A DNA stretch of 64,000 bases from Crocosphaera sp. XPORK-15E. GTDB lineage: Bacteria > Cyanobacteriota > Cyanobacteriia > Cyanobacteriales > Microcystaceae. Shown piece by piece: positions 53,977-62,193 of the stretch (position 1 is its first letter; the number at the start of each line of letters is the position of its first letter). Under the pieces are notes generated by a model. That model searched no databases, was not told where the DNA came from, and saw only the letters and a program-made list of their open reading frames with translations. The stretch spans positions 31,473-95,472 of the forward strand of contig NZ_JAYGHQ010000013.1 in NCBI RefSeq assembly GCF_034931425.1, read 5' to 3'. The position numbers and the translations under genes were made by a program.

Positions 53977-56898
53977 TTATTTAGCTTCCATCCAATTTTT
54001 ACCATGATGAATTTCTACTAATAAAGGAACAGTTAAATTAACAGCATTTTCCATAGTATTTTTAATTTTAGGCTGTAATTCTTCCCATTCTTGAGGCGGT
54101 ACTTCAAACACTAATTCATCATGAACTTGTAACAATAATCTAGCTTGATAATTAGCTAAAATTTTCTGAATTTTTACCATAGCAATTTTAATAATATCAG
54201 CACTTGATCCTTGAATGGGAGCATTAGCAGCGGCCCTTAATAATTGAGCATCAGTATAATTCAAATTTAACTGCTCTAAATTAATGGTTTTAGGAGCATG
54301 GCCACGAAACTGATATAAACTATTTGTACTAAATTTAAAATAACGCCTTCTGCCTAAAATTGTTGTCACATATCCATTAGCGATCGCTTCTTTTTTCATA
54401 GTTTCTAAATACTCAAATACCTGGGCATAGCGTTGACGATATTTATTAATAAATTCTTTGCCTTCTGCCGCACTTACCCCCGCTTCTCTGGCAAATCTTT
54501 GGGCCCCCATGCCATAAATTACACCAAAGTTAATAGTTTTACCTAAATTTCGTTCTGCTGATGTAATATTATCCTTTTCAAATAACAGTTTTGCTGTCAC
54601 ACTATGGACATCTTGACTATTTTTATAGGCATCTAATAAAACTGGTTCTTGACTTAAATGGGCTAAAATTCTTAATTCAATTTGAGAATAATCTGCGGAG
54701 ACTAATAACCATCCTTCTTGGGGAAGAAATGCTTGTCTAATTTTACGAGAAAATTCGGTTCTGATCGGAATATTTTGTAAATTAGGATTAGAAGAAGATA
54801 GTCTTCCTGTTGCGGTTACAGACTGATTAAAATTCGTGTGTATTCGGTTAGTTTTTGCATCAACTAATTCAGGTAAAGCATCTACATAAGTTGATTTTAA
54901 TTTAGATAAAGTTCGATAGTCTAAAATATAATCAATGATCGGATGATCGCCTTGTAATTTTTCTAATGTAGCATGATCAGTCGAGTATCCTGTTTTTGTT
55001 TTGCGAGATTTTTTGCGGTTTAATTCTAATTTTTCAAAAAGAATTTCTCCTAATTGTTTTGGCGATCCTAAATTAAAGTTTTCTCCCGCTTCGTGATATG
55101 CTTGCTGTTCAATAATGTTTAAATTTTCTTCTAATTGTTGAGATAATTTTCCTAAGTATTCTGTGTCAATTATAATCCCTTGATCTTCCATGGCCGCTAA
55201 CACGGGTTCTAAGGGTTGTTCGACTTCTAATAATAAGGTTTCAAGCTCAGAAGTTTGGGCTAATTTAGCTTTTAAGGGTTCTACTAATAACCAAGTAGAA
55301 TAAGCATCTATACCACAATAATCAGCCACAGTTTCAAGATCAAGGTCGGCAATAGTTTTATTTTTTGCAATACCTAATTCATTATAATTTTGAGAGGTAA
55401 TATCAGACAAATATTGTTGACATAAATCACTCAATTTATGACTGCCTTCCGGATCAATAACATAACTCGCTAACATAGTATCAAAAACTACCCCATCTAA
55501 CTTAATTCCCTGATGGTGTAAAATGAGACGATCAAACTTTGTATTCTGAAAAACCTTGGGATATTTATTACTTTCTAAAATCGTTCTTAATCTTTCTAAA
55601 ACTTGTTCTTTTTTGAGTTGTTCTCCCTGTTTATGTCCCACAGGAATATAGGCAACATCAGTGGGTTTATTTCCCCAACAACAACCAATTCCTACTAAGT
55701 CTGCTTGTCTCGGATTTAAGTCCGTTGTTTCTGTATCCCAAGCCACCGGAAAAGCAGAATTAGTCTGTTTAAGCAGAATTTCAACTAACTCATCTAACTG
55801 GGGTTTACTTGTAATAATTTGAGGATTAATTGAAGAATTTCTCTGCTTTTTTTCAATAGCTATATATTTCTTTTCTTCAGAAGATAATGAGTCAAAAATT
55901 GATAGTTGTTTGGGTTGATTATCATCAAATATTTTTGACTCTTTTGGTAGTTCTATTTGTACTTGTCCCCCAAATTGTTGCTGTAATTGATTGATTTTTT
56001 TTAAGAACTTTTTTAATTCCAGTTTTTCAAGTACAGGTTGTAATAAATCAAGATTAAACCCTTTAAGTTTACAATTTTCTAAAGTCAGATCAAGGGGAAC
56101 ATTAACAATTATTTCAGCTAAATAACGGGAATGTTCAGCGTCTTTTACTCCTTCCTTTAACTTCTTCTGGTTAGCCCCTTTAATTTGCTCAAGATTTTGA
56201 TAAATCTTCTCAAGATTACCATATTCAGTTAATAACTTAACTGCTGTTTTTTCCCCTATACCTCGCACCCCAGGAATATTATCTGATTTATCACCACACA
56301 AAGCTTTATAATCAATAACTTGAGTCGGTTTAACCCCTAATTTTTCTTCGACAGATGCTTCGTTAAACAGGGTATATCCTTCCCCTGTAGAACTTTTAAT
56401 GGCATTTCTTTCTAAATAAAGAACATTAATATTATGCTGATCATCTACTAATTGAAAAAGATCCCGATCGCCACTAACAATGATCACCCGATAACCTGAC
56501 TCACTAGCTTTTTTAGCCAGGGTTCCTAAAACATCATCCGCTTCATATCCAGGGGCAGTAACAATGATTAAATTTAACGCCTCTAATAAGTCTTGTAAAT
56601 TTTTCACATCAGGAATAAAATCCTCTGGTGTTTCCTGTCGATCAGCCTTATAATTAATGTCAGCTTTATGACGAAATGTAGGTTCTTTGAGATCAAAAGC
56701 AATCGCCATATATTGAGGTTTCTGAGACTCAATCACTTGGATTAAAGAATTGAGAAACCCAAAGCAAACACTGGTGGGAATGCCTGTGGAAGTCCGCAAA
56801 GGCCCTGTTCTAGCTTTGGCAAAAGCATAATAGGCACGAAAGGCCAAAGAATGACCATCAACGAGAAGAAACAGGGGTAAGGTTGGCTGAGGTTGCAT
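53977..56898 (-). CDS. polA: DNA polymerase I
   Basis: 973 aa with 5'-3' exonuclease, 3'-5' exonuclease-like and polymerase motifs (DYSQIELRILAHLS, KTINFGVIYGMG, QVHDELVFE). Confidence 0.9.
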   Translation of the reverse strand: MQPQPTLPLFLLVDGHSLAFRAYYAFAKARTGPLRTSTGIPTSVCFGFLNSLIQVIESQKPQYMAIAFDLKEPTFRHKADINYKADRQETPEDFIPDVKNLQDLLEALNLIIVTAPGYEADDVLGTLAKKASESGYRVIIVSGDRDLFQLVDDQHNINVLYLERNAIKSSTGEGYTLFNEASVEEKLGVKPTQVIDYKALCGDKSDNIPGVRGIGEKTAVKLLTEYGNLEKIYQNLEQIKGANQKKLKEGVKDAEHSRYLAEIIVNVPLDLTLENCKLKGFNLDLLQPVLEKLELKKFLKKINQLQQQFGGQVQIELPKESKIFDDNQPKQLSIFDSLSSEEKKYIAIEKKQRNSSINPQIITSKPQLDELVEILLKQTNSAFPVAWDTETTDLNPRQADLVGIGCCWGNKPTDVAYIPVGHKQGEQLKKEQVLERLRTILESNKYPKVFQNTKFDRLILHHQGIKLDGVVFDTMLASYVIDPEGSHKLSDLCQQYLSDITSQNYNELGIAKNKTIADLDLETVADYCGIDAYSTWLLVEPLKAKLAQTSELETLLLEVEQPLEPVLAAMEDQGIIIDTEYLGKLSQQLEENLNIIEQQAYHEAGENFNLGSPKQLGEILFEKLELNRKKSRKTKTGYSTDHATLEKLQGDHPIIDYILDYRTLSKLKSTYVDALPELVDAKTNRIHTNFNQSVTATGRLSSSNPNLQNIPIRTEFSRKIRQAFLPQEGWLLVSADYSQIELRILAHLSQEPVLLDAYKNSQDVHSVTAKLLFEKDNITSAERNLGKTINFGVIYGMGAQRFAREAGVSAAEGKEFINKYRQRYAQVFEYLETMKKEAIANGYVTTILGRRRYFKFSTNSLYQFRGHAPKTINLEQLNLNYTDAQLLRAAANAPIQGSSADIIKIAMVKIQKILANYQARLLLQVHDELVFEVPPQEWEELQPKIKNTMENAVNLTVPLLVEIHHGKNWMEAK

Positions 56899-57175
56899 TA
56901 TTAAAATGGGTGATAATCTATCAAAGACTAAGAAAGCAACTCGTATTTATGTACTATACCATAATTGTGTTATTGGGTAACATCTCTCCTTAATCTTCCA
57001 TGTTTGGGCAATTTTTTAGAAATTTTTGCTTTGAGATGTTACTTTTTTTTGCAATATGGGTACTCTAATCATCAACTAGATCTGATCTGACTTAAAGTCA
57101 TTGTCTTTATGACATTAAAGATCTTAGCAAACTTTTACCAATTTTAGACATTTTTATCCTAAACTAACAAAGTCA

Positions 57176-57694
57176 ATGAAAACCATCAACAAAAAAATTT
57201 GTTTATTAGGTCATTTTCATGCAGGAAAAACCAGCCTAGTGATTCAATTCCTGGAAAAGAGATTTCAAAATTATTATGGGGCTGATCTTGGGGTAAAAAT
57301 TTTTGAAACTTGCCACCAATTTCATGAAGATCAAACCCTGAATTTATCTATTTGGGATATTGCTGGTTCAGTAGATGAATATTTTCCTAACCCAGTTTAT
57401 TTAGCAGGAACCCACGGAGTAATAATTGTGACAGATATCAGTCAAACTGATGCCTTAGATCATGTTAACAGCTATTTACATTGGCTTGATACTCTGACTG
57501 ATATTCCCCTAAAAATTGCTATTGCTTTAAATAAATGTGATTTAATAGATACGGCTGATTTATCCCTTGATTATTTCCCAACTAATCCCTTAGTTATTAA
57601 AACTTACGAAACTTCAGCCAAGACAGGAAAAAATGTTAATATAATTTTTCAAGAGCTATTTAATCACTTATGGGATTCCCCGTCAATACCATGA
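57176..57694 (+). CDS. Ras-like small GTPase
   Basis: 172 aa. G1 is LLGHFHAGKTSL, G3 is WDIAGS and G4 is LNKCDL. It overlaps the next gene by 25 nt. Confidence 0.7.
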   Translation: MKTINKKICLLGHFHAGKTSLVIQFLEKRFQNYYGADLGVKIFETCHQFHEDQTLNLSIWDIAGSVDEYFPNPVYLAGTHGVIIVTDISQTDALDHVNSYLHWLDTLTDIPLKIAIALNKCDLIDTADLSLDYFPTNPLVIKTYETSAKTGKNVNIIFQELFNHLWDSPSIP

Positions 57695-59103
57695 TAAAAA
57701 AGTTAATTCATCCTCAATATCGAGACCATCTTAAAGTTGGACAAAATTGGTTAATTAGGGACATTTCCCAAGGAGTTGATCGGTTTTCCAATTCTCCTAA
57801 TGCCCTGAAATCTGGTCAAGATATTCGGGATGTCTTTCCAGAAATTAGAGGACTAGAAAGCATCTTATCCGATGTTTTTCATGGCAAAAGAATTAGTTAT
57901 GAAATTAAGCATCTTTGTCGCCATTCTTCTCAACAATCTCTCCATTATTTTAATCTTTATTTTTTACTAGATCAAAATAGTGATCATCAATTATTAGTTT
58001 TAGTAGAAGAAGCCAGAGAATCCCTACATACTTTGCAAAAAATGACGCAAATCACCAAAGAAACCTTACTTTCTGTACAAGAAAAAGAAAAATTTCTTGG
58101 TATTATTACTCAACAGATTTGGCGCTCTTTGAAACTCGAAGATGTTTTAAAACTCAATATTACACAAATTCGTCAAAAATTAGACTGTTGTCGCGTCCTC
58201 ATTTATCAAGTTCACAATTTCCAAAAAAATTGGTACGGAAGAATTATTACTGAAACCGTTGCCCCAGGATGTAAAGAATTATTAGACCAGGAATTTAATA
58301 ACCCGACTCTCCATCAAAATTGGGGACAATTGTACCGCGATCAGGAGGTATTCCAAATTGAAGATATCAACCATTATGGCTTAGAAGAATCCTGGCGTAA
58401 AACCCTCCAAGATAATCAAATTGACTCTCAATTAGTCATCCCAATTTGGATTAGTGATGCCGAAGCAGAAACCTCATTTGAAATTCACCTGTGGGGACTC
58501 CTGATTATTCATCACCATACCCCCCGTTATTGGTATAAAAAAGAGATTCAAATGGTCAAAAACCTATCAGAATACCTCACTATCTCCATCCAACTCGAAA
58601 GACTAGCTATCATTGATTATCTGACACATTTACCCAATCGTCGCGCTTTTAATAGTCAATTACAACAAGAATGGGAAAGACTGGCCCGTGAGAAACAACC
58701 CCTCGCTTTAATCTTATGTGATGTTGATTATTTTTCCCGTTTTAACAAAACCTATGGACACCTCAGCGGCGATCATTGTTTAAGACAAATTGCCTCCATT
58801 TTAGCCAAAAGTATTAAACGTTCAGCAGATACTGCTGCCCGCTATGGAGGTGAAGAATTTGCTATTATTTTACCTAATACAGAAATTGAGGGGGCTTACC
58901 AAGTCGCCGAAAAAGTTCGCCAAGAAATCAACGCACTCAAAATCCCTCATCAAGAATCCCCTAAACAATATGTCACCATCAGTTTAGGGGTAGCCAGTTA
59001 CATTCCTAACACAAGCTTAACTATCGAAACCTTAATTCAAGCGGCGGATAATGCCTTATTAGCTGCTAAACAAGCGGGACGAGACTGCACTATCAAACAC
59101 TAA
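57670..59103 (+). CDS. GAF-domain diguanylate cyclase (GGDEF)
   Basis: 477 aa. A central GAF-like region is followed by a C-terminal GGDEF domain with RYGGEEFAIILPNT. Confidence 0.85.
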   Translation: MGFPVNTMIKKLIHPQYRDHLKVGQNWLIRDISQGVDRFSNSPNALKSGQDIRDVFPEIRGLESILSDVFHGKRISYEIKHLCRHSSQQSLHYFNLYFLLDQNSDHQLLVLVEEARESLHTLQKMTQITKETLLSVQEKEKFLGIITQQIWRSLKLEDVLKLNITQIRQKLDCCRVLIYQVHNFQKNWYGRIITETVAPGCKELLDQEFNNPTLHQNWGQLYRDQEVFQIEDINHYGLEESWRKTLQDNQIDSQLVIPIWISDAEAETSFEIHLWGLLIIHHHTPRYWYKKEIQMVKNLSEYLTISIQLERLAIIDYLTHLPNRRAFNSQLQQEWERLAREKQPLALILCDVDYFSRFNKTYGHLSGDHCLRQIASILAKSIKRSADTAARYGGEEFAIILPNTEIEGAYQVAEKVRQEINALKIPHQESPKQYVTISLGVASYIPNTSLTIETLIQAADNALLAAKQAGRDCTIKH

Positions 59104-59180: not shown

Positions 59181-60548
59181 TTGTCTGAGAAATACCGAAA
59201 AATGAATTTATTTGATCGCATTCGTTTAGGGTTAGCTGTTGGCGTTGCTAAAACCGTAACAGCAGGGGTTCGTTTCCTGGGCTTAGGGGCAGCGAGTGTC
59301 TTACCTGGGGAAATTTCCCGCCGTTTTCATCCGAGACTCTTATCCCTGCTGTGTGAGCAAGTGAAACAGGGGGTTATTCTTGTGGTGGGAACCAATGGCA
59401 AAACCACCACCTCTTTATTATTACGAACAATTTTAGAAAATCAAGGCTATAAAGTCGCCCATAATGATACAGGAGCTAACTTAATTAATGGCCTAGTTAC
59501 TACCTTATTAAATAAGACAAATTTAATTGGAAAACTCCAGGCAGATTATGCCATTTTAGAAGTGGATGAAAATATTGTTCCTCTGATTTTAAATGACTGT
59601 AAACCTCGGATTATTTTGGCATTAAATTTATTTCGAGATCAATTAGATCGTTATGGGGAAGTAGACACCATTAGTCAACGTTGGCAAAAAGCAATCGCCC
59701 CTTTAGCCTCTGATACAGTCATTATTCTTAATGCCGATGATCCAACCCTTTCTTATTTAGGACAACAATTAGCACAAAAAGTACGTTATTTTGGACTGAG
59801 TGAACCTGATTTATATTTAGAAGAAATTCCCCATGCTGTAGATTCAATCTACTGTCCAAGCTGTGGCTATCCTTTAAATTATAAAGGGGTTTATTTATCC
59901 CATTTAGGGGACTTTACTTGTCCTAGTTGTGGCTTTAGTAAGAGTCAAACTGCCTTTCATAGCAAGGATTGGCCGCAGATTTTAATTGGAGTTTATAATA
60001 AGTATAATACCTTGGCCGCGGGCTTAGTCGCTCAGGAATTAGGCATTAATACCCCCGAAATTTTTGCAACCGTTAATAACTTTAAAGCCGCCTTTGGACG
60101 GGCAGAAGAATTAACTATTGAAGGCAAGCACGTGCGGATTTTACTATCAAAAAATCCCGTAGGTATGAATGAAACAATTAGGGCAGTTAATGAGATCAAA
60201 AAGACTGGAAAATCCTCCACAACTTTGTTAGTATTAAATGATAGAACCCCTGACGGTACTGATGTTTCTTGGATCTGGGATGTAGATACAGAAACCTTGG
60301 TAAGTTTAGGAGGAAATTTAGTGGTTAGCGGCGATCGCATTTATGATTTGGCCTTGCGGTTACAATATAGTCAAGAGACTCAACCCGAAGAAGCGGATCA
60401 GGTTAAACTGATTATTAAAGAAAATCTACAAGAAGCGGTGCAAACTGCCTTAAATTTAAGTTCTGAAAATGAAACCTTACACATTATTCCTACCTATTCC
60501 GCCATGTTGGAAGTCAGAGGAATTTTGACCGGTAGACAAATTCTATAA
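59181..60548 (+). CDS. murT: MurT-like Mur-ligase-domain protein with a C-terminal DUF1727 and a Cys4 zinc ribbon
   Basis: 455 aa with VVGTNGKTTT (Mur ligase P-loop), CPSCG...CPSCG and a DUF1727-like tail. Confidence 0.7.
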   Translation: MSEKYRKMNLFDRIRLGLAVGVAKTVTAGVRFLGLGAASVLPGEISRRFHPRLLSLLCEQVKQGVILVVGTNGKTTTSLLLRTILENQGYKVAHNDTGANLINGLVTTLLNKTNLIGKLQADYAILEVDENIVPLILNDCKPRIILALNLFRDQLDRYGEVDTISQRWQKAIAPLASDTVIILNADDPTLSYLGQQLAQKVRYFGLSEPDLYLEEIPHAVDSIYCPSCGYPLNYKGVYLSHLGDFTCPSCGFSKSQTAFHSKDWPQILIGVYNKYNTLAAGLVAQELGINTPEIFATVNNFKAAFGRAEELTIEGKHVRILLSKNPVGMNETIRAVNEIKKTGKSSTTLLVLNDRTPDGTDVSWIWDVDTETLVSLGGNLVVSGDRIYDLALRLQYSQETQPEEADQVKLIIKENLQEAVQTALNLSSENETLHIIPTYSAMLEVRGILTGRQIL

Positions 60549-60736: not shown

Positions 60737-61234
60737 ATGGGCAAGGTTCTGGTGTTGAATGCCTCCTATGAACCGCTCAATATCACCAGTTGGCGAAGGG
60801 CGGTTGTCTTGTTAATCAAGGGCAAAGCTGAACGGCTTGAAAATAATGAACAGTTTATCTATACTGATTTTCCCCTACCTTCAGTCATTCGACTGCGCCA
60901 ATATGTTCGCGTCCCTTACAAAGAAATTCCTTTAACTCGACGTAATATTCTGGAACGAGATCGCCACACTTGTCAATATTGTTATTACCGAGGAGAACAA
61001 TTAACCCTAGACCATGTAATTCCCCGTTCACGAGGTGGGGGTGATACCTGGGAAAACCTCGTCACTGCCTGTGTGCGTTGTAACGTGAAAAAAGGCAACC
61101 GCACCCCCAAAGAAGCCCAGATGAATCTGTATCATACGCCTCGCCGTCCTTATAGTAGCCTACATTTTGAACTGGTCAAGCATACCAGAGGAAATCTTAA
61201 TCACGAATGGCGTAAATACGTTATTGGCATTTAA
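60737..61234 (+). CDS. HNH endonuclease
   Basis: 165 aa with the HNH motif CQYC...LTLDHVIPRSRGG...WENLVTACVRCNVKKGN. Confidence 0.8.
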   Translation: MGKVLVLNASYEPLNITSWRRAVVLLIKGKAERLENNEQFIYTDFPLPSVIRLRQYVRVPYKEIPLTRRNILERDRHTCQYCYYRGEQLTLDHVIPRSRGGGDTWENLVTACVRCNVKKGNRTPKEAQMNLYHTPRRPYSSLHFELVKHTRGNLNHEWRKYVIGI

Positions 61235-61675: not shown

Positions 61676-61986
61676 GGGGGCGTGGCGGAATGGTAGACGC
61701 TGCGGACTTAAATAAATTGAGCCTTGATAGAGAAATCTAGCAAGTGTAAGCTCTCAAACTCAGGGAAACCTAAGTCTAGTATATAGATAAGGCAATCCTG
61801 AGCCAAGCCGAAACCGTAAGGTTTCGGAAGGTGCAGAGACTCGACGGGAGCTACCCTAACAGATAAAGCTGAGGGTAAAGAGAGAGTCCAATTCTCAAAG
61901 CTGAGATCAAGCAGTAGCGAAAGCTGCAAGAGAATGAAAATCCGTTGACCTTAAAAGTCGTGAGAGTTCAAGTCTCTCCGCCCCCA
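61676..61986 (+). tRNA. trnL-UAA: tRNA-Leu(UAA) interrupted by a group I intron in the anticodon loop
   Basis: The 5' exon GGGGGCGTGGCGGAATGGTAGACGCTGCGGACTT ends at U34. The 3' exon is AAAATCCGTTGACCTTAAAAGTCGTGAGAGTTCAAGTCTCTCCGCCCCCA. The acceptor stem is 7 bp (GGGGGCG/CGCCCCC), the T-arm is GAGAG-TTCAAGT-CTCTC, and the spliced anticodon loop is CUUAAAA. Confidence 0.85.
61710..61936 (+). ncRNA. Group I self-splicing intron (cyanobacterial tRNA-Leu intron)
   Basis: It is 227 nt long, inserted between U34 and A35, and ends in G. It has the same position and general sequence character as the classic cyanobacterial and plastid trnL(UAA) intron. Confidence 0.75.
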
Positions 61987-62193
61987 TAATACCCTCAAGC
62001 TGCTTCAAGAAGCCTAGGCAATAATAGACACTATTGCCGTTAAATTCCTGGTTAACTCTAGGAAATCGGCATCTTCTACTAAACCGCCAGCAGCTAAAAT
62101 GCGAATAATAGCAATTTTTTGTTACTTAATGTGGTTTGGAAATAAGGCGATCACTGTTAACTAAAGATTTGAACGGATGAGCTAAAAATACGA

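Follow-up and report, generated by a model that had tools for sequence, protein, structure and literature searches.

Locus organization

A 64,000-nucleotide stretch of the genome of Crocosphaera sp. XPORK-15E (contig NZ_JAYGHQ010000013.1, positions 31,473 to 95,472), referred to here as the window, carries a gene for a Ras-like small GTPase followed directly on its 3' side by a gene for a diguanylate cyclase of the GAF-GGDEF type. The two genes were located from the list of open reading frames (ORFs) and the sequence of the window, and their relationship to each other and to the Group 1 Rup GTPases is the subject of this report. The features of the locus are collected in Table 1.

Table 1. Features of the GTPase/cyclase locus, in window coordinates
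Feature	Position	Strand	Basis and remarks
polA	53977..56898	-	Directly upstream of the pair, divergent orientation
Intergenic region	56899..57175	.	277 nt separating divergent polA from the GTPase gene; presumed to hold the promoter of the two-gene operon; ORF map
GTPase, rup-like, small Ras superfamily, 172 aa	57176..57694	+	Pfam Ras, 1.4e-22
Diguanylate cyclase, 470 aa (start corrected)	57691..59103	+	N-PAS, helical linker, GAF and GGDEF; ORF, N-termini of orthologs, Pfam, AlphaFold2
N-PAS, predicted divergent PAS fold, residues about 10-108	57718..58014	+	AlphaFold2, Foldseek, conservation; co-occurs with the GTPase
Helical linker (signalling helix) with Gln-116 and Gln-120	58015..58134	+	Conservation; helix 110-142 in the model
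GAF, residues about 149-300	58135..58590	+	Pfam GAF, 2.4e-9; folded in the AlphaFold2 model
GGDEF catalytic domain, residues about 306-465	58606..59085	+	Pfam GGDEF; motifs read from the sequence
MurT (Mur ligase/MurT_C type)	59181..60548		Directly after the cyclase; named by the Pfam marks of the ortholog in Crocosphaera sp. UHCC 0190

Taken from its first ATG, the cyclase ORF extends from 57670 to 59103 on the forward strand and encodes 477 amino acids. The orthologous cyclase of Crocosphaera sp. UHCC 0190 (L001) begins MIKKLIHPQY, 27 nt past its GTPase gene, and that of a metagenome (L003) begins at the aligned position, 12 nt past its GTPase gene. Neither can be extended upstream of the residue aligned with Met-8 (MIKKLI...) of the window product, and the N-terminal domain family as a whole starts at this position. 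Based on these orthologs and on the family, the window cyclase most likely starts at the ATG at 57691 and is 470 amino acids long. A reading of the sequence made earlier without database searches (the sequence-only reading) had the two genes overlapping by 25 nt, with a cyclase of 477 residues. The ORFs do overlap as listed, but both figures reflect the first ATG and are likely to be 4 nt and 470 amino acids. The ATG at 57691 overlaps the GTPase stop codon (TGA, 57692-57694) as ATGA, a classic arrangement for translational coupling, which suggests that the two genes are coupled in this way.

The pair and its flanks are kept in two further genomes or metagenomes of the Crocosphaera clade. Relative to the orthologs both genes are under purifying selection, with ratios of nonsynonymous to synonymous substitution rates (dN/dS) of 0.21-0.31 for the GTPase and 0.17-0.20 for the cyclase. 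Consensus scans for promoters and terminators around the pair performed no better than on shuffled sequence (10 promoter sites found, 8.1 expected) and for this reason no promoter was assigned. An Rfam scan near the pair gave no match and no evident riboswitch, and neither protein matched a PADLOC defence-system model at E<=0.01.

The small GTPase

Besides the Pfam Ras model, the product of the first gene matched the Roc (1.6e-16) and TIGR00231 small_GTP (2.2e-15) models. The motifs G1 (GHFHAGKTS, residues 12-20), G3 (WDIAG, 60-64), G4 (NKCD, 119-122) and G5 (SAK, 147-149) were located and, together with the size of the protein and the significant profile match, place it among the small GTPases that make up the Ras superfamily. 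By sequence, the solved structures nearest to it are those of eukaryotic Rab5, RabF2b and Rab6 (E about 1e-19 to 1e-16), in agreement with the sequence-only reading, which had recognized a eukaryote-like small GTPase from the G1, G3 and G4 motifs. The protein is 100% identical to one on record for Crocosphaera sp. XPORK-15E. About 355 homologs were found, mostly cyanobacterial entries named 'Rab family GTPase', sharing 36-44% identity. The protein scored about 105-114 bits against canonical members of this family and 71 bits against the best Rab, a comparison of scores and not a tree. Judged by sequence, it is a member of a mainly cyanobacterial family of Rab-like GTPases.

In the alignment to Rab5 and RabF2b the position of the switch I Thr (Ras Thr-35) is taken by Asp-37 and that of the catalytic Gln (Ras Gln-61) by Ser-65, so that the window GTPase lacks both of these residues of the superfamily. 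They define classic switching and catalysis rather than membership of the fold. A conserved Gln after DxxG, the Ras-61 position, is missing from the whole family (120 members), and Phe, which is Phe-14 in the window protein, stands at the Ras Gly-12 position in 119 of the 120.

Three replacements, the one at switch I among them, set the Crocosphaera clade apart. The switch I Thr of 117/120 family members is Asp, Asp and Ser in the clade (T37D in the window), the Glu of the G3 motif WD(L/I)EG, likewise present in 117/120, is Ala (E63A), and the Asp of the P-loop (GDF..., 116/120) is His (D13H). No family member outside these three clade sequences deviates at the switch I Thr or the G3 Glu, all three deviate at both, and the same three replace the P-loop Asp. 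With G1, DxxG, NKxD and SAK intact and the gene under purifying selection, predicted nucleotide binding is clearly maintained.

The diguanylate cyclase

The partner had been read from the sequence as a GAF-GGDEF protein, and the profile searches bore this out. The Pfam GGDEF model matched at 4.3e-54 (profile positions 1-160 of 161, 183 bits) and the GAF model more weakly (Table 1), while the first ~150 residues were left unassigned. The active site is GGEEF (58846-58860), with an RxxD inhibitory site, RSAD (58819-58830), five residues upstream. The catalytic D, N, H and R columns are conserved in the alignment with relatives (A7), and the motifs of a diguanylate cyclase are present. The GGDEF domain is predicted from these residues to be an active, product-inhibited cyclase.

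The N-terminal region, called N-PAS here, gave no match in Pfam or NCBIfam and no Pfam PAS model at E<=0.1. An AlphaFold2 model built from a 30-sequence alignment (pLDDT, the predicted local confidence, 87.9; pTM, the predicted template-modelling score, 0.72) has the topology b-b-a-a-a-b-b-b followed by a helix at 110-142. When this model was compared with the PDB by Foldseek, all top matches were PAS or LOV domains with helical linkers (3k3c at 7e-5, 3luq, DosP and short LOV proteins). Based on this modelled fold, N-PAS is assigned to the PAS domains.

An exhaustive scan of 1.84 billion cluster representatives (clusters at 50% identity) with cyclase residues 1-143 detected 219 homologous proteins at E<=1e-3, in which the match lies almost always at the extreme N-terminus. 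Other searches performed poorly: a word-indexed search with a 147-residue fragment found nothing, the parent protein included, and its profile version found only 5 proteins. The conserved residues of N-PAS are S26, F49-P50-E51, G54, E56, R77 and Y86, and its last strand ends in a conserved E-D-V-T-E motif. In the helix that follows, Q116, Q120, N123 and E124 are conserved, Gln-120 being invariant in the alignment examined (A2) and Gln-116 present in 92% of 141 sequences. Across the Crocosphaera clade N-PAS differs at T109, which is changed to R or K, and at N123, changed to K.

In the AlphaFold2 model of the full-length cyclase (mean pLDDT 82, pTM 0.49) N-PAS, GAF and GGDEF are confidently folded and joined by helices. 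Residues 122-132, modelled with low confidence, fall at the site of a second, canonical PAS domain in relatives. This domain is absent from the Crocosphaera-clade cyclase in the same alignment of relatives (A7).

Conservation of the gene pair

A scan of one genome per GTDB species yielded 80 loci with homologs of the GTPase (35-42% identity), which were surveyed by our own ORF calling and by phmmer and hmmsearch. Cyanobacteria account for most of them (Nostocales, Microcoleus and other Oscillatoriales, Pleurocapsales, Spirulina and Symploca), and one is from Sulfurimonas. Enough downstream DNA was available at 78 loci, and in 63 of these the gene directly after the GTPase gene encodes an N-PAS protein whose N-terminal domain matches residues 1-130 of the window cyclase (E 1e-28 to 1e-7). 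The gap between the two genes at these 63 loci is -4 nt in 18, the commonest value and that of the window, +4 in 17 and +5 in 8. The pair is thus not unique to this genome, and profile search places the small ORF among the Ras-superfamily GTPases; on both counts the sequence-only reading held.

Upstream of the GTPase gene two further genes recur. DUFX, found in 61/66 loci, is a protein of 700-900 amino acids with a conserved central domain, a transmembrane segment and the Pfam domains BON and OmpA; DUFY, found in 52/66, is a coiled-coil protein of ~215 amino acids. The central ~130 residues of DUFX (L021:7640-9826 and the DUFX of the 61/66 loci) have the consensus ...QAIFLIHKASGLVISE...EMVAGMLTAIRSF...IILEVAGYCYLAVVV.GEP... 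and resemble, by eye, a Roadblock/LC7 or longin domain. For this domain neither Pfam at E<=10 nor PDB sequences searched with a profile yielded a meaningful match, which left the Roadblock/LC7 idea unsupported; if it were true, the canonical Rup system would hold a classic GTPase-regulator fold. Two loci labelled Candidatus Gracilibacteria (L005) and Acetobacteraceae (L074) have a GTPase and a DUFX very similar to the cyanobacterial ones and are probably mis-binned cyanobacterial contigs, not true occurrences in those phyla.

At 11 loci two different N-PAS genes lie in a row behind one GTPase gene, which suggests that one GTPase feeds two different outputs. Tandem pairs were seen in L013, L019, L023, L037, L040, L047, L049, L050 and L065 (Microcoleus and related genera). 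The order in this Microcoleus-type set, L013 to L065, is an N-PAS-PAS histidine kinase of ~516 amino acids followed by an N-PAS-PAS-GAF-PAS class III adenylate/guanylate cyclase of ~928 amino acids.

The outputs carried by N-PAS proteins are varied. Among 74 encoded next to a GTPase, HisKA/HATPase domains were found in 47, a class III cyclase in 19, HD_5 in 1 and GGDEF in none. Among 78 representatives of the global N-PAS set there were 26 with HisKA/HATPase, 21 with GGDEF, 13 with Guanylate_cyc, 2 with SpoIIE and 2 with Pkinase. Where N-PAS is internal, among 150 representatives, it sits behind Ser/Thr kinase, receiver or OmpR-type DNA-binding domains. Based on these sequences, N-PAS behaves like a modular input domain, almost always N-terminal and fused to many outputs.

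The HD_5 case is that of Sulfurimonas sp. SAG-AH-194-L11 (Campylobacterota), where the four-gene arrangement ends in an N-PAS protein with an HD_5/HD (HD-GYP-like) domain (L027:10525-11619). The Rup/N-PAS system can apparently be wired to the breakdown of cyclic di-GMP (c-di-GMP) as well as to its synthesis. At loci of the Pleurocapsales/Xenococcaceae type (L006, L015, L016, L033, L036, L048, L058 and L062) DUFX and the GTPase occur with no N-PAS gene nearby, and in L006 the gene after the GTPase encodes a 742-residue GGDEF protein lacking N-PAS. The GTPase of the Pleurocapsales lineage may use a different partner.

GGDEF-type N-PAS proteins were also looked up independently, and the three that were (L086, L087/L088 and L089) were all directly preceded by a GTPase homolog. 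The gene order in L087 is DUFY, DUFX:BON:OmpA, GTPase and N-PAS:PAS:GAF:GGDEF, the last two with a 4-nt overlap, and genes for MurT and GatD lie further downstream. Its cyclase is 36% identical to that of the window over N-PAS and 38% over 372 residues of GAF-GGDEF. Two small ORFs and a PAS-GAF-cyclase gene separate the N-PAS cyclase from MurT in L087, whereas in the window MurT comes directly after the cyclase. Because the two cyclases align and the MurT neighbour is common to both, the window locus looks like the positional ortholog of a canonical four-gene system that has lost DUFY, DUFX and the second PAS domain.

At the window locus and in the orthologous L001 and L002, polA lies directly upstream of the pair and DUFX and DUFY are not next to it. 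The DUFY and DUFX proteins of 7 loci were searched by tblastn against the whole 64-kb window, to which the search was limited, and gave nothing below E 0.3. Five other loci with no adjacent DUFX and DUFY retain the canonical GTPase residues.

Relationship to the Rup system and to other small GTPase modules

The Rup family and its Group 1 were defined by phylogenomics (Wuichet and Sogaard-Andersen, 2014, Genome Biol Evol 7:57; PMC4316618). According to that work Group 1 Rup GTPases have no G3 Gln and no coupling to MglB, and are, of all prokaryotic proteins, those most closely related to eukaryotic Rab, Ras, Rho and Ran. Their neighbours are a coiled-coil DUFY, a DUFX-OmpA membrane protein and an output protein of the GGDEF/EAL or histidine kinase type, which has a conserved N-terminal region with an "invariant glutamine" proposed as a catalytic residue in trans. 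The supplementary table lists Ava_0879, Npun_F1891, cce_4705 (Cyanothece ATCC 51142) and others in the order DUFY>DUFX:OmpA>Rup>, and the Rup/output gene order was noted in other phyla as well (PMC4316618). As of 2014 no Rup member had been experimentally characterized (PMC4316618), and no later or experimental work on Rup GTPases was found in the literature searched, six Group 1 locus tags included.

The upstream arrangement of our survey loci is that of Group 1 Rup in the published table, and the closest homologs of the window GTPase outside its own clade lie in such DUFY>DUFX:OmpA>Rup> loci. The pair shares with Group 1 a single-domain Rab/Ras-like GTPase without the G3 Gln, the absence of an MglB neighbour and an adjacent output protein with an N-terminal region containing an invariant Gln. 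From the sequence comparisons, the first ~130 residues of the window cyclase are taken to be the conserved N-terminal region of Group 1 outputs, and Gln-116 or Gln-120 is a candidate for the invariant glutamine of Wuichet and Sogaard-Andersen. Unlike the published systems, the window pair has polA upstream in place of the adjacent DUFY and DUFX:OmpA that characterize the group, its cyclase has no second PAS domain and its GTPase carries D13H, T37D and E63A.

According to the sequence-only reading, a Ras-superfamily switch coupled to c-di-GMP synthesis was not a standard described module. This has to be corrected, since Group 1 Rup was described in 2014 (PMC4316618) and a Ras-like GTPase coupled to a c-di-GMP enzyme is thus already on record, by computation only. 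The advance here is a modest one: a variant reduced to two genes and with an atypical switch region, the predicted PAS fold of the coupling domain in the N-terminal region, and a wider catalogue of outputs, which now includes class III cyclases and HD_5.

Other modules are more distant. The MglA/MglB polarity switch of Myxococcus and Thermus also has a bacterial Ras-like small GTPase encoded beside a regulator or partner. However, MglA is a separate family with a modified G3 and is paired with MglB, a Roadblock/LC7 GTPase-activating protein (GAP), whereas no MglB-like gene adjoins the window GTPase, whose best matches are Rup/Rab and not MglA; the window pair is not a system of this kind. The actinobacterial conservon (CvnA-D), to which Group 1 Rup was likened by Wuichet and Sogaard-Andersen (PMC4316618), is similarly a multi-gene module wiring a small Ras-like GTPase to a protein of the sensor-kinase type. 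Its own parts are the MglA-family GTPase CvnD, the Roadblock protein CvnB and the membrane-bound, histidine-kinase-like CvnA, while the window locus has no Roadblock gene, a soluble cyclase as output and a predicted PAS fold as coupling domain.

Eukaryotic Rab proteins with their TBC GAPs supply the closest solved structures and the precedent for a catalytic Gln in trans, but the window GTPase has no prenylation tail, Gln-61 or switch I Thr, and its putative partner is a PAS domain rather than TBC. The GGEEF and RxxD motifs and the N-terminal sensory domains on helical linkers recall the PAS- or GAF-regulated GGDEF cyclases of the PleD and WspR class, from which the window cyclase differs in that its presumed input is a separately encoded small GTPase, not phosphorylation or a small ligand alone.

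Proposed function of the pair

Our preferred reading, held with a little more confidence than doubt, is that the Group 1 Rup system has here been reduced to two genes, with the GTPase controlling the cyclase through N-PAS. The two genes would be co-transcribed and translationally coupled. With G1, the DxxG of G3, G4 and G5 intact the GTPase is expected to bind guanine nucleotide, and its intrinsic GTP hydrolysis would probably be poor because there is no Gln in cis at the Ras-61 position and the Ras-12 position is filled by a bulky Phe. It would dock, in one nucleotide state, on the N-PAS/helix module of a dimeric cyclase; the signal would then run along the helical linker through GAF and alter how the two GGDEF domains meet, turning c-di-GMP synthesis up or down. 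Gln-116 or Gln-120 of the helix may supply the catalytic Gln in trans, in which case the effector would also be the off-switch of the GTPase, as proposed by Wuichet and Sogaard-Andersen (PMC4316618).

The direction GTPase to N-PAS to output is favoured on sequence grounds because N-PAS is input-like with varied outputs and one GTPase sometimes precedes two N-PAS proteins. That the GTPase may gate the cyclase, one of two options raised in the sequence-only reading, is a reasonable proposal. The other option, that the ligand of the GAF domain acts as effector of the GTPase, found no support. The domain that travels with the GTPase, which the sequence-only reading had missed, is the unannotated N-terminal PAS-like one and not GAF. 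The input in the Crocosphaera clade probably differs from that of the canonical system, because the envelope-linked DUFY and DUFX are not adjacent and switch I is altered; candidates are the GAF domain with its ligand, the cellular guanine-nucleotide state, or partners encoded elsewhere.

Several observations weigh against this interpretation. No N-PAS gene lies nearby in 14 of the 78 loci, mainly from Pleurocapsales, which have the GTPase and DUFX, and therefore the GTPase has no strict need of an adjacent N-PAS protein. Among the 150 N-PAS representatives no natural fusion of GTPase and N-PAS was found. The direction of information flow is drawn from domain logic, and the contact between GTPase and N-PAS is a presumed one. 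The conserved Gln lies on a helix that is expected to form a dimeric coiled coil, which is not an obvious site for a catalytic finger. The absence of DUFX and DUFY holds for the window and for the orthologous loci, although partners encoded elsewhere are candidates. Finally, the switch I Thr normally couples the gamma-phosphate and Mg2+ to switch conformation, and with Asp in its place the GTPase of the Crocosphaera clade may not cycle classically.

The strongest rival, which we nevertheless consider unlikely, is that N-PAS and its helix form a GTPase-activating module that gives Gln-116 or Gln-120 in trans, the true effector lying elsewhere and the GAF domain setting cyclase activity. A catalytic Gln in trans is established for eukaryotic TBC RabGAPs, which provide the precedent for such a module. 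The family has no conserved Gln at the Ras-61 position, a Gln in the N-PAS helix is invariant or nearly so, and this very role was proposed by Wuichet and Sogaard-Andersen (PMC4316618). One would not, however, expect a dedicated GAP to turn up in fusion with so many different enzymatic outputs or twice, with different outputs, behind one GTPase; patterns like these are typical of an input domain. The effector and GAP roles of N-PAS are in any case compatible and not mutually exclusive.

Control of the cyclase by a working switch would also be wrong if the Crocosphaera-clade GTPase were a pseudo-switch, permanently nucleotide-bound or nucleotide-sensing, that stabilizes or localizes the cyclase after loss of the DUFX and DUFY partners. 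This we regard as quite improbable. It would account for the replacement of the near-invariant switch I Thr, G3 Glu and P-loop Asp in all three sequences of the clade, and for the absence of DUFX and DUFY from the 64-kb window and the orthologous loci. It is opposed by the intact G1, DxxG, NKxD and SAK motifs and the dN/dS of 0.21-0.31, and by the possibility that Ser or Asp at switch I could still coordinate Mg2+. The five loci mentioned above that have canonical motifs with no adjacent DUFX and DUFY also count against it, in that loss of the neighbours alone predicts no substitutions.

The substitutions allow a more far-reaching proposal, which is speculative and very doubtful at present, namely that the Crocosphaera clade stripped an envelope-linked Rup system of four components down to a minimal, soluble device of two proteins, in which a GTPase without the switch I Thr and the G3 Glu works by a non-canonical mechanism. 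Such a GTPase could report the cellular GTP/GDP state to a GTP-consuming cyclase through a PAS 'GTPase-receiver' domain. The effector helix would supply the catalytic Gln, making the effector also a GAP by analogy with G-alpha and some of its effectors, and T37D, E63A and D13H of the GTPase with T109R/K and N123K of N-PAS would represent co-adaptation of an interface.

An incidental adjacency of two unrelated signalling genes is scarcely credible: 4-nt overlaps are common among bacterial genes, but chance is effectively refuted by the recurrence of the order GTPase/N-PAS in 63/78 loci from several cyanobacterial orders and Sulfurimonas, in 3/3 GGDEF-type N-PAS proteins looked up independently, and in other phyla in the 2014 survey (PMC4316618).

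The question at stake with Group 1 Rup is the function and readout of a Ras-like switch in bacteria that have no GAPs, guanine nucleotide exchange factors or effectors of the eukaryotic type. The two-gene Crocosphaera version, with no adjacent membrane partners and an easily measured c-di-GMP product, offers a convenient minimal system in which to ask whether N-PAS is a docking site, whether a Gln acts in trans and whether nucleotide state controls a second-messenger enzyme. The pair is a tractable entry point to an uncharacterized family that is, among bacteria, closest to the eukaryotic Rab/Ras GTPases. The unannotated N-PAS family itself (at least 219 clusters at 50% identity), which is fused to kinases, class III cyclases, GGDEF, HD_5 and phosphatase domains, gains a predicted PAS fold and a likely role.

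Neighbouring genes

Beyond the pair, the window MurT gene is followed by an HNH-endonuclease-like ORF at 60737-61234, whereas in L087 a gene for a GatD-type amidotransferase (GATase_3) is located directly after MurT. The window locus seems to depart from the usual MurT/GatD pairing.

A tRNA-Leu(UAA) gene that was not called by ARAGORN is apparently split at 61676-61987 on the forward strand, with a 5' exon GGGGGCGTGGCGGAATGGTAGACGCTGCGGACTTAA and a 3' exon AAAATCCGTTGACC...CTCTCCGCCCCCA. Within these limits Rfam identified a group I intron (RF00028; 61700-61907, +; 91.6 bits, E 3.4e-22), which is presumably the classic cyanobacterial tRNA-Leu intron.

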